A stretch of DNA of 64,000 bases from a virus: the UHGV virus genome UHGV-0036853. One strand, given 5' to 3'. Shown here one piece after another: positions 30,001 to 33,000 of this stretch. Position numbers: made by a program. The first letter of the stretch is position 1; each line of letters opens with the position of its first letter.

Positions 30001-33000
30001 GTAATTTTGTTCTGGTTATACCCATACCGGTACACATTATTCATGCAATGTCTTAAGTATGCTGTCAGCGGTAAAAAATCGACTAAAGTATGCTGTGAGC
30101 GGTGAGATAGACTCTCGATATGCTATCAGCGGTAGTTGATTGTGTATGCTGTCAGCGGTGACGACTATGAAATATGACTGCGGAACGTTCCGCAGTCAGT
30201 TTGCATTTAGTGTATTTTCTTTAACAGACCCCAAAGTGTTCCGGCTTTTGTAGTCAGTTTTCCTGTTTCTGGATCGTACATACGCCATTCACGCCGCTGG
30301 TGGACGATATACCCATCTTCACGTTCCAGACGCTCAAGAATGCCAGGCTGCTTGAAACCCTTAGCACGCCAGTAGCCGCTTGTTTTCTCGATTTCCAGAC
30401 CTGCCAGTGTTAATGCCATTATCCAACCTCCTTGCAGTCATCGAAAAGGTAGCTTTGCTGAGAAGCGTGAACGCCATAGAAGCCCTTGTATTTGTTGTAT
30501 ACGAAGTGGTCTTCTCCGACGCCGGTTAATTTGCCATTACGGTTTGTGAGATATGGGGATGACAACACTCGATCGTCACGCACAACATAGAACTGGTCGC
30601 CGCTGTCTACGACCATCGCTCCATATGGTGCTTTTATGACGTCGGTAAGAGCGCCATTCTTAACGTCGGCTACAGACATTTCACACTGATAAACAGTGGT
30701 GTCGGCCACAACGATCGAAGAAAGGAACAACAGCGCGAATGGGATGGCCTTCATGCTGCCACCTCTTTGATTACATCAAATGCTGAATTAAATACGAGCA
30801 CGATAGCCAAAGCGTTTATTACTACGTCGTTCACCGGGGAAAAGACTTTACGAATGACACCAGTGAAAATGCAGTCGATGACAAAAGCTATTGACACGAT
30901 GAGTAACAAGTATTCAATAAAAATCTTCATGATAGGTAGATACTAACTTATATAAATTTTACTGTAAACTCACTCAAAAGTGCTGATGCTTAAAATACGC
31001 TCAAGATGTGCGGCATCTTCATCACTGATTTGTTGAGTCTCTTCTACGTACCAACAGTTGCCGTTATGCCAACAAACACCATCATCATCAACCATCACTG
31101 AATCAGCGTCATGACCTGTATATTCAACGAGAATACGCTGGATCAGCGCGTCAGTTTCTTCGTCGTTAAGGCCATCGGCTTTGACCATAAAAAGCGGAAA
31201 CACGTCATAGACAGTGCTGGTAACGATTCGAACTAAAACTCTCATGTGTTTTTCCTTTTGTGGTTAGTGTTTACTTATTTTGTTAGTTACGAATAGGCGA
31301 TCAATCTTCTTGTTTAGGGAAAAACTGTTCAATAACTCTGTCAACGGCTGTGTCTATATGGAGTAGATGCCACACAACCATATCTTTGCTCCCCATGCCT
31401 TGTGTGAATATCACGTCATACTTACGCCATGCGCAGTGGAACCAATATGCTGAGTCATCAATTGGTAAATCCTCTCCCGCCTCTTTGAAGTATTTCAGCA
31501 GCATTGCTTGCTCTGCCGTTGGCGTTGGACCTATTTCCTGAGCGTACATACGGATAAATCGCTGCCAGTCTGTCTCGTCAGGTGTTTGATCTGGTGGGGT
31601 CATTTCGGCGATAGCGTTTCGTAGCTGATGCGCCCAATCAGGTTCAGGAAAGCCTTTTGATACTTCATCATCAATAACACCCAGAGCCGCGTTTGCGGCA
31701 TCGTAGAGTTTCTTAATAGCTGTCATGTTTTCTTATCCTTTTAAACAAATTGTTTTCTTAATAAGATAATTGCGATAAAAAAGGCGTCCAACTGGACGCC
31801 TGAACTTTTTAGGGGAGTTATTTCACTGTAATGAAAGGAGTGTTAGCCCCTTGAGTCATGTACTGCGGTAACTGGCCATTCCATTTATTGATGGCTTCCA
31901 GTTCCATAACGTTCGGGTTTTGACGCAGAGCTTCACCGCGCAGACGAATGGCGTCTGCTTCTGCTTGCGCACGAGCACGGATAGCATCAGCTTCACCATT
32001 AGCCTGTTCACGCAGCATATTCGCCTCAGCTTTACGCTGTTCAACTTCCTGTTGACGTTGCAGAGTACGCTGGTTAGCCGTTACTTTGGCGTTGATAGAT
32101 TCAATGACGGTTTTTGGGTAATCAGGTTTTCCAACCCATGACAGGCTCAGTACCTCAATACCAACCGGAGACATCTCTTTCTGAATATCTTTCAGTGCGT
32201 TGTCCAGCAATTGTGCCTTACCACCGTCGATAAATGAGTCAGTGGTCATACGGCTGGCCAAACGGTTTAGAGAGTCGGCAATTTTCTGACGCAGATCTGA
32301 TTCGGTGATATCGTCTACGCCTTTGCGATAGGTCTGGAACACCGTCGTTACCTTGTCACGATTAACCAGATACGCAACGCCAATTTTGTGACCAATAGCA
32401 GTACCGTCACTCATCTGGAATGTGAACGGCTCGTCGTAGGTCTTCATTTGTTTGAAGGTAGGGAATACGTAAAGTTCGGTGTTAAGACCTGTCCATTGGC
32501 GACCAACGCCAACCACTTCACCAATCCCTTTGTCTTCACCTAATTTGTTTACTTTGATGCCAACGTATCCAGGCTCTACGCGATCACAGCCAGTAAGACC
32601 CATTGTGCAAATAGCCGCCAGAGCAACTGCAAGTAAACCTTTCTTCATTACTTATTTCCCCTTTGCTTTGATTAATGAGTTAATAAACTTACGACCAGCA
32701 ATAAGACCGATTACAGGAGTACCAAAACCAACGATAACTCCAAGCATGACGGCCAAATCACTCTTTGCAGAAATCAGCGACGGAACCAGTAATCCGTAGA
32801 TGAGAGCCACTGAAAGGCCTGTGGCTACTGCCAATAGATAGATTTTGATCATGTGTTTTCCTATGTGGTTGTTATGCGAAAATGATAAGTAAGTACTTAT
32901 ATATTTTCAAGAGATAAAAAAGGCGTCCTGTGGACGCCTTGTGTTTACTCTTCTACTGACTCGGTGGGATTGTCTTTTGATCTCCGGTCGTCGATTGCCT

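Follow-up and report, generated by a model that had tools for sequence, protein, structure and literature searches.

Why would a phage carry a small membrane cassette built around an SPFH lipoprotein next to its recombination genes, and what might the cassette do? The question is raised by UHGV virus genome UHGV-0036853, of which a stretch of 64,000 nucleotides was analysed (hereafter the window). On its minus strand, two adjacent open reading frames (ORFs) encode a membrane protein of 66 aa (32652-32852) and, downstream of it, an SPFH/Band-7 lipoprotein of 276 aa with similarity to prohibitin and HflK (31818-32648). A preliminary description of this DNA had recognized both as an SPFH/band-7 lipoprotein with an upstream two-transmembrane (two-TM) partner, and both ORFs are found as described: the larger protein has a Band_7 domain, the smaller one has two hydrophobic segments, and they belong to families PHROG 200 and PHROG 1130, respectively. 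Our reading, to which we assign a probability of about one half, is that the two genes form a self-contained, horizontally mobile membrane module that the phage carries as accessory cargo and in which an SPFH ring and a hairpin subunit would together modulate a host component.

The cages formed by SPFH proteins (HflK/C, prohibitin, erlin, stomatin and flotillin) are the subject of intense structural work. To our knowledge, no bacterial member has been characterised for the 'prokaryotic prohibitin' branch, which faces the periplasm. The pair would represent this branch in a form in which a dedicated mini-partner, sometimes fused to the SPFH protein, replaces NfeD, and which has been widely spread by phages. 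With approximately 340 aa in all, it is a compact and easily expressed system with which to ask what function a periplasmic SPFH ring has, and why virulent and temperate phages alike retain the pair under strong purifying selection. Should its target be FtsH or the sensing of membrane integrity, it would constitute a new class of phage host-control factor; otherwise, it would be an ordinary accessory membrane scaffold.

The SPFH lipoprotein and its hairpin partner

The SPFH protein aligned with the Pfam profile Band_7 (PF01145) with an E-value of 2.6e-30 (106.2 bits, against a gathering cutoff of 23.6), its residues 23-209 matching positions 2-176 of the 176 in the profile, and with PHROG 200 ('lipoprotein') with an E-value of 3e-108. 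In both sequence and fold, it is closest to HflK/HflC, prohibitin and erlin. The nearest proteins in a sequence search of PDB were HflK (E = 0.007) and prohibitin-2. An AlphaFold2 (AF2) model of the monomer, with a predicted local distance difference test score (pLDDT) of 80, consists of strands (residues 21-95), helices (97-159), a further strand (164-176), a continuous helix of 65 residues (179-243), a short helix (245-255) and a low-confidence tail. When this model was compared with PDB using Foldseek, the best match was HflK (7vhq_E; E = 2.8e-14, 259 aligned columns), followed by prohibitin (8rrh), HflC and erlin; the top alignments were near full-length (240-300 columns), and stomatin and flotillin were also matched. 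The model and these alignments both display the alpha/beta core and long helix of the cage-forming members. The equivalog level of NCBIfam (TIGR01933 and TIGR01932) was not reached, with scores of 30.2 bits for HflC (cutoff 134.4) and 18.7 bits for HflK (cutoff 159.4). Many homologues are named 'prohibitin family protein' by NCBI.

The N-terminus of the protein is a predicted lipoprotein signal peptide (32586-32648, minus strand), with the lipobox L18-T-G-C21 followed by Asp22 at position +2. The segment MKKGLLAVALAAICTMGLTG that precedes the cysteine shows a canonical n-region, h-region and lipobox, and the start MKK-GLLAVALAAICTMG-LTGC fits the lipobox pattern [LVI][ASTVI][GAS]C. The lipobox cysteine was invariant across the aligned phage lineages and kept in 27 of the 30 SPFH clusters of the family, with C-D-R at this site in all four enterobacterial clusters. 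Asp at +2 is the residue that retains lipoproteins in the inner membrane of E. coli (the Lol-avoidance rule). At the other end of the protein lies the family-defining motif K255-W-N-G-Q-L-P261 (31866-31886, minus strand), of which K, W, G and P are conserved without exception in a range of phages extending from SSU5-like members to Kayvirus MbpS and phiCbK; KWNGxLP also served as a scan pattern for homologues. Its pLDDT in the monomer is low, as would be expected if the motif became ordered only within an oligomer. Judged by a ratio of nonsynonymous to synonymous substitution rates (dN/dS) of 0.03 in codon-level comparisons of alleles, the SPFH gene is under very strong purifying selection.

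The 66-aa protein aligned with PHROG 1130 ('membrane protein') with an E-value of 5e-26. Its hydrophobic segments cover residues 1-29 and 32-53, and the AF2 model (pLDDT 75.6) is a hairpin of two helices (2-28 and 32-65) joined by a turn (29-31), with a basic C-terminal tail. Averaged over 73 members of the family, Lys and Arg number 1.7 in the N-terminal tail, 0.75 in the turn, where they are roughly offset by acidic residues, and 3.7 in the C-terminal tail; this distribution, which the window protein shares, predicts an N-in/C-in topology. A conserved motif, P24-S-L-I-S-A-K-S-D32 (32757-32783, minus strand), surrounds the turn and is predicted to lie at the periplasmic membrane interface. 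The upstream ORFs of SSU5-like, N4-like, lambdoid Stx2, P1-like, rV5-like and Pseudomonas phages yielded the consensus P-x-L-[IV]-S-[AS]-x-[DS]-x-x-x-V-x-x-G, in which P24, S28, V35 and G38 were invariant across the phage lineages aligned, and the turn motif is kept in fused proteins and in chromosomal copies from Dyella and Saprospirales. The hairpin ORF is a real coding gene, because its dN/dS of 0.21-0.27 across alleles (vs 0.03 for the SPFH gene) denotes purifying selection. A search for relatives among solved structures returned only a chance-level match (E = 0.41). The ORF is also mosaic. Between the window (32652-32852) and phage Cyrano (locus L001, 5446-5646), its dS is 0.65, whereas that of the adjacent SPFH gene is 0.05; a recombination breakpoint therefore lies between the two genes. 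Chimeric combinations of N- and C-terminal alleles were seen among the E. coli copies of the hairpin.

The preliminary description had started from the premise that SPFH proteins usually pair with NfeD-like membrane proteins, of which the partner found here would be a very small one. This premise had to be abandoned. The 66-aa protein matched no Pfam family at E ≤ 0.01 and no NCBIfam family at E ≤ 1, lacks the NfeD (PF01957) OB-fold and is modelled as just two helices, so its identification as an NfeD protein was rejected. NfeD partners are known only for some SPFH subfamilies and for neither HflK/C nor the prokaryotic prohibitins (Hinderhofer et al. 2009, PMC2636767), and the SPFH protein of the window is nearest to such NfeD-less relatives (HflK/C, prohibitin and erlin); the NfeD-paired QmcA (8z5g) ranked only 37th in the fold search. 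Because those subfamilies lack NfeD partners and no NfeD match was obtained here, the expectation does not apply to this locus. By its sequence conservation, the 66-aa protein is best described as a separate hairpin family and not as a truncated NfeD.

Several characterised systems resemble the pair in part. HflK and HflC share its domain order (anchor, SPFH core, long helix and C-terminal segment), its predicted periplasmic orientation and the lack of NfeD. However, the phage protein has a lipid anchor where HflK/C have an N-terminal TM helix, identity is only approximately 16-19%, and a single SPFH gene with a separate two-TM hairpin stands in place of the paired hflK and hflC genes. In the fold search, prohibitin and erlin account for ranks 2-10, and the C-terminal GEALRQNP..LE.I aligns with prohibitin-2. 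The prokaryotic prohibitins (SPFH4) are predicted to face the periplasm, with no studied bacterial member and no partner gene (PMC2636767). The phage family shares the predicted orientation and the absence of NfeD with them but differs in its dedicated hairpin partner, its lipobox and the KWNGxLP motif. In SPFH-NfeD operons (QmcA-YbbJ, whose complex has a solved structure, 8z5g; YqiK-YqiJ; FloT-NfeD2), a small membrane protein is likewise encoded immediately upstream and co-expressed. However, the hairpin has no NfeD/OB-fold domain, and the NfeD-paired YbbK/QmcA face the cytoplasm (PMC2636767). In Bacillus subtilis, the SPFH protein of the YdjG/YdjH-YdjI system (SamGHI) also has no TM segment of its own and is localised via small membrane proteins encoded upstream (PMC8581546). 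YdjI, however, is cytoplasmic and recruits PspA, and its partners are unrelated in sequence to the hairpin, whereas the phage SPFH protein is predicted to be periplasmic and lipid-anchored. Finally, MbpS of Kayvirus is homologous to the SPFH protein (24-27% identity), keeps KWNG and is preceded by a small membrane protein, MbpV, but MbpS is TM-anchored and lacks a lipobox, and MbpV has one TM segment and is unrelated to the hairpin.

Both families had already been catalogued, as PHROGs 200 and 1130, and we file the pair as an NfeD-independent, two-subunit, lipid-anchored prohibitin/HflK-like module. The routine annotations are 'SPFH domain-containing protein' and 'membrane protein', or, in SSU5, Cyrano, KpCHEMY26 and Ro1, 'lipoprotein' and 'membrane protein'. 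Genome papers on phages with SPFH genes contain annotations and speculation on HflKC/FtsH or membrane microdomains (PMC7150955, PMC8540360, PMC4936722, PMC10269572). A full-text literature search found no functional study of phage SPFH genes; nor did it return any account of the hairpin partner or the fusions reported below.

Conservation of the pair and boundaries of the cassette

Searches with tblastn using the 66-aa protein reached SSU5-like phages only. Detection of more distant partners required an HMM (hidden Markov model) derived from loci read by hand, built from an alignment of the upstream ORFs in several phage lineages. As in the window, where the PHROG 1130 and PHROG 200 genes are adjacent and co-oriented, a hairpin ORF was found directly upstream of the SPFH gene in 80 out of 80 close IMG/VR loci, with gaps of -4, +3 or -20. 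Across 30 SPFH clusters (clustered at 90% identity, with 26-100% identity to the window protein), the hairpin was immediately upstream in approximately 23, and one gene intervened in two more. In a group of 18 IMG/VR loci whose SPFH proteins are 74% identical to that of the window, the hairpin ORF as called has only 35 aa, corresponding to the second helix (locus L226, 1900-2007); this reflects either a missed start or a frameshift, or else a decaying partner gene.

The strongest link between the hairpin and the SPFH protein that sequence comparison suggests is their natural fusion. In P0054, a P1-type hairpin continues in frame into its own SPFH protein, and fusions were present in 18 of the best 150 cluster representatives (50% identity) retrieved from a library of 1.84 billion proteins; 14 of these 18 matched the hairpin HMM at E < 0.01. 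The fused proteins are laid out as hairpin, cytoplasmic linker, signal-like TM segment with a lipobox cysteine and SPFH domain, a topology possible only with an N-in/C-in hairpin and an exported, periplasmic SPFH domain. Since the fusions (P0054; P0278-P0394) keep the lipobox cysteine, signal peptidase II may cleave them into the same two pieces.

SPFH homologues were retrieved by tblastn from 642 phage records, the carriers comprising Kayvirus and Pseudomonas, Erwinia, Klebsiella, Escherichia, Bacillus, Burkholderia, Caulobacter, crAss-like and Lak phages. Virulent phages (N4-like, rV5-like, Felix-O1-like, Kayvirus and crAss-like) and temperate ones both carry the family, which forms 195 clusters at 50% identity at E ≤ 1e-30, or 902 at E ≤ 1e-10. 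Among complete E. coli genomes, 737 out of 5426 (approximately 14%) carry a homologue, with up to three per genome, and 195 have the full SSU5-type cassette. Cellular copies were sought by a genome scan with an alignment of five fusion sequences as query. In Dyella, Rhodanobacter and other Lysobacterales, both ORFs occupy a conserved locus with aldo/keto reductase, zinc alcohol dehydrogenase and DUF3014 genes; in the chromosome of Dyella sp. KULCS107 (locus L258, ~5930-7010), they are in frame and a few codons apart, as in the window. In a metagenome-assembled genome of Saprospirales (locus L260, 5980-6819; neighbours at 3820-5148 and 6911-7834), the SPFH lipoprotein and its upstream hairpin are encoded directly after an HMG-CoA reductase gene, a possible link of this SPFH branch to isoprenoid lipid synthesis. 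No phage hallmark was found among the tested neighbours of the Dyella-type and Saprospirales copies, and these chromosomal loci are apparently non-prophage. A contig binned as Eubacteriaceae and carrying a fused copy also encodes a terminase and is probably viral.

The gene pair was also found, with SPFH identities of 68-78%, in unrelated contexts, amounting to at least five genome settings overall. In Stx2 prophages, it occupies the terminal position next to the integrase and, in the P1-like phage RCS47, the interval between upl and dnaB; an N4-like Klebsiella phage carries it in the early/middle region, and another prophage type has it as well. DNA similarity between these contexts covers only the part coding for the mature SPFH protein and extends to neither the hairpin ORF nor the promoter and terminators. 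The pairing is therefore old and does not reflect the recent transfer of a single segment; recent spread as a mobile DNA segment was dropped as an explanation for the same reason.

The two ORFs of the window are 3 nt apart (TAA GTA ATG), and each is preceded by a Shine-Dalgarno-like purine run. They share a reading frame, split only by TAA GTA. Programmed read-through was considered and rejected, since in most homologues the two ORFs overlap by ATGA and occupy different frames, and the in-frame layout here is probably incidental. Upstream of the hairpin ORF lies a candidate sigma-70-like promoter, TTGAAA-17-TATCAT (32882-32910, minus strand), which matches the consensus at 10 of 12 positions and carries TAAGTACTTAC in its spacer. 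Its 29-nt core is fully preserved in SSU5, in a region with an overall identity of just 79%. The same architecture recurs at 36396-36424, upstream of the ssb-exo-recA operon, with the common core TAAGTACT-A--TATCATTT. The motif TAAGTACTNANNTATCAT has 21 matches in the window at up to three mismatches, against 1.7 expected. Perfect copies precede the SPFH cassette (32882-32899, minus strand) and the gp32-like ssb operon (36396-36413, minus strand), and other sites that resemble it include 9882, 25936 and 43016 (+). The element is in part a palindrome (AAGTACTT), and its position between the -35 and -10 hexamers is that expected of a repressor operator; that a common repressor binds there is speculative.

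Both ends of the cassette are marked by the same intrinsic terminator. One hairpin (GGCGTCC..GGACGCC plus a T-run; 32920-32940, minus strand) follows recA and forms the left boundary, and a second copy (31782-31801, minus strand) follows the SPFH gene and forms the right one. The sequence GGCGTCC-N-GGACGCCTTTT occurs only in these two copies in the window, with 0 expected, and the two bracket the cassette. In the SSU5-like Klebsiella phage ST13-OXA48phi12.3, a single hairpin of this type separates recA from the sequence that comes after the second hairpin in the window and in SSU5; the promoter, the hairpin ORF and the SPFH gene are all missing at that junction, and the sequence left of the recA terminator in the window matches this cassette-less phage. 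The comparison of these junctions therefore identifies the cassette as an insertion bounded by a duplicated terminator. We tentatively treat the duplication as a recombination scar or a reused terminator; its role as a transposon or integrase target was rejected, as it is accompanied by neither a recombinase nor inverted repeats. On sequence alone, the cassette has the layout of a moron, with a promoter-like site and a terminator of its own, and it separates genes that lie side by side in relatives. Together with its absence from the Klebsiella relative and the variety of its genomic settings, this upholds the earlier proposal that the pair is accessory cargo.

Possible functions of the module

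In the mechanism that we propose, the SPFH lipoprotein would be exported and lipid-anchored at Cys21, with its SPFH domain in the periplasm, and Asp at +2 would keep it in the inner membrane in the same orientation as HflK/HflC. By analogy with its relatives, it would most likely oligomerise through the 65-residue helix and the KWNGxLP motif to give a ring or dome that sits on the outer, periplasmic side of the membrane. The hairpin, made by a translationally coupled upstream gene, would place its turn at the periplasmic membrane interface and act as the membrane-embedded subunit, supplying in trans the TM part that HflK/C and prohibitins carry in cis. We consider it a putative subunit of the same assembly because of the conserved adjacency and the natural fusions, and translational coupling and the fusions make a 1:1 ratio of hairpin to SPFH protein probable. 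Expression together with the replication and recombination genes is probable, since the promoter type is common to the ssb-exo-recA operon; the cassette would be switched on with those genes and would not serve as a constitutive lysogenic-conversion gene. The assembly would then fence off a patch of inner membrane and modulate a conserved host component. That the target would be a conserved cellular one, rather than the proteins of another phage, is suggested by the very low dN/dS, the virulent carriers of many hosts and the cellular copies. As to its identity, our leading guesses are the FtsH-type quality control of membrane proteins, by analogy with HflK/C and prohibitin, or the integrity of the membrane during infection.

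Several points weigh against this mechanism. The oligomeric state of the SPFH protein is taken from its relatives, its interaction with the hairpin from adjacency and fusions, and the tie of the module to FtsH from family resemblance. Lipidation and inner-membrane retention are predictions from sequence rules: non-enterobacterial members have Ser, Gly or Glu at +2, and Arg at +3 may weaken retention in the inner membrane. The promoter is a candidate recognized by its match to the consensus, and the last 15 residues of the SPFH protein have low confidence in the monomer model. The hairpin is also not universal. LUZ24-like phages, Kayvirus (MbpV) and phiCbK have unrelated small membrane proteins upstream of the SPFH gene, Erwinia Felix-O1-like phages have no membrane ORF at this position, and no hairpin was detected at 16 of 31 bacterial loci. 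Finally, an 'HflK/C-like' protein from a Pasteurella prophage has been reported in outer-membrane vesicles (PMC9872710), which would count against a strict inner-membrane location if the two were homologous.

A bolder version of the same idea, which we consider rather unlikely, is a 'split prohibitin': a two-subunit cage, ancestral in some bacteria and repeatedly captured by phages of many families as a general takeover tool. Closing off a patch of inner membrane from its periplasmic side, it would neutralise a universally conserved host function and thus serve as a widespread device for counter-defence or host control, not as a passive scaffold. Candidate functions would be FtsH-dependent membrane-protein turnover, the sensing of membrane damage and pore-forming abortive-infection effectors.

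In a sharper form of our guess at the target, the module could be a specific mimic of HflK/C, with the phage ring capturing or displacing host FtsH or competing with HflKC, thereby stabilising FtsH substrates of phage or host and biasing the lysis-lysogeny decision or membrane-protein turnover. Its predicted topology equals that of HflK/C, and its nearest relatives, HflK/C and prohibitins, are scaffolds of FtsH-family AAA proteases (PMC2636767; PMC12048511). FtsH is a protease of relevance to phages, being inhibited by lambda CIII (PMC1838920), and genome papers have repeatedly speculated in this direction (PMC8540360, PMC4936722, PMC10269572). However, the likeness is one of general resemblance, with scores far below the HflK/HflC equivalog cutoffs; no FtsH gene was present in any neighbourhood examined; and obligately lytic carriers have no lysogeny decision to bias (cf. 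PMC8540360). Such mimicry is, in our view, rather unlikely.

Membrane remodelling or exclusion had been offered as possible roles in the preliminary description. In superinfection exclusion, another explanation, the pair would stop DNA injection or membrane penetration by other phages or by pore-forming colicins. Analogues are T4 Imm/Sp, P22 SieA and the lipoproteins Ltp, Llp and Cor. Characterised exclusion proteins are either small proteins of the inner membrane or lipoproteins, and incoming DNA crosses at the predicted site of the pair, on the outer face of the inner membrane. The moron-like cassette, the position beside the integrase of Stx2 prophages and the 737 E. coli genomes with one or more copies would also fit. 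In RCS47, the pair fills the variable interval from dmt to dnaB (ban), which in P1 presumably carries tciA-C. Nevertheless, exclusion proteins are typically fast-evolving and narrow in range, whereas the SPFH gene keeps its dN/dS of 0.03 across phages of very different hosts and entry mechanisms. The module is, moreover, common in strictly virulent phages and present at the apparently non-prophage chromosomal loci, and its replication/recombination-class promoter suggests expression in the lytic phase rather than in the lysogen. Neither protein, nor any of three downstream neighbours, had a match in PADLOC-DB at E ≤ 1, a result that counts against exclusion and on which identification as a defence system was rejected. 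We regard exclusion as distinctly unlikely.

A role in lysis timing, with the 66-aa protein as a pore former akin to class II holins or pinholins and the SPFH protein as its regulator, is very improbable. The format is holin-like (approximately 65 aa, two TM helices and a basic C-terminus), and in Kayvirus, mbpV-mbpS adjoins lysK and holA and MbpV is said to resemble holins (PMC7150955). However, the window has a complete, separate lysis cassette approximately 28 kb away (60359-61804), as does Cyrano, so that the pair is not located beside the endolysin as a holin gene would be and a holin identity of the hairpin was rejected. Unlike holins, the hairpin has a turn motif conserved across distant phages and cellular genomes; it is also naturally fused to the SPFH protein, and the cassette would be transcribed from a replication-class promoter and not with the late genes. 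Hardly tenable, finally, is the proposal that the SPFH protein is a virulence lipoprotein with no role for the phage, which would reach the outer membrane or vesicles and act on an animal host (for example, as a Toll-like receptor 2 (TLR2) agonist): the 'HflK/C-like' Pasteurella multocida prophage protein PM0222 was reported to occur in outer-membrane vesicles and to signal through TLR1/2, with attenuated virulence upon its deletion (PMC9872710), but it is only a putative homologue of this SPFH family, Asp at +2 predicts inner-membrane retention in E. coli, the inner-membrane hairpin partner and the fusions likewise place the SPFH protein at the inner membrane, and the family is abundant in virulent phages and environmental bacteria.

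Genomic neighbourhood of the cassette

The 7-kb stretch around the pair shares 96-99% identity with Escherichia phages CMS-2020a, PhiR41_1 and Cyrano and with many plasmids of approximately 110 kb from E. coli and E. albertii, and 79% identity with Salmonella phage SSU5. These nucleotide identities identify the window as an SSU5-like phage-plasmid of E. coli. The pair had been described as lying within DNA-metabolism genes, which is correct for its upstream side, with genes for RecA, a 5'-3' exonuclease and a gp32-like single-stranded DNA-binding protein (SSB), but not for its downstream side, where small proteins are followed by RepA.

On the upstream side, all genes are on the minus strand. 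The gp32-like SSB (35292-36314) matches Pfam gp32 over residues 30-230 with an E-value of 6e-65 and ends in a tail of approximately 110 aa with a very high content of Ala, Ser, Thr and Glu. It is followed by the 5'-3' exonuclease (34287-35282), a 90-aa ORF and RecA (32945-34018). RecA has 357 aa in the window and 779 aa as annotated in Cyrano (locus L001, 5740-8079), and in some related plasmids, a LAGLIDADG homing endonuclease is listed under the recA match. This suggests that recA of the relatives contains an intein or an intron-borne endonuclease that is absent from the window.

The stretch downstream of recA is a variable region of the SSU5 group. In the window, the SPFH gene is followed on the minus strand by a gene for a DUF7238 protein and by four small PHROG families to which no function is assigned. 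SSU5 has an additional DUF2591/NinX-like gene between the SPFH and DUF7238 genes (locus L092, 2001-2372), and in the Klebsiella relative, two tiny ORFs replace the whole block (locus L091, 3180-3466). Beyond lies repA (28414-29628, plus strand), with a Rep3_N domain. It is flanked by at least 14 iterons of the consensus (R)TATGCTRYCAGCGGT, at 28410-28517 and 29626-30163. Because the listed start at 28414 falls inside the upstream iteron block, the true start of repA is probably an internal Met (MSTKNKK...).

The distant lysis cassette, which corresponds to CYRAN_22-25 of Cyrano, is also on the minus strand. It encodes a holin-like protein of 111 aa (61469-61804), an endolysin of 239 aa whose C-terminus is hydrophobic (60763-61482), an Rz-like protein (60510-60761) and, overlapping the last, an Rz1-like lipoprotein with the lipobox ISGC (60359-60667). 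A further lipoprotein ORF of 77 aa lies nearby (61874-62107).

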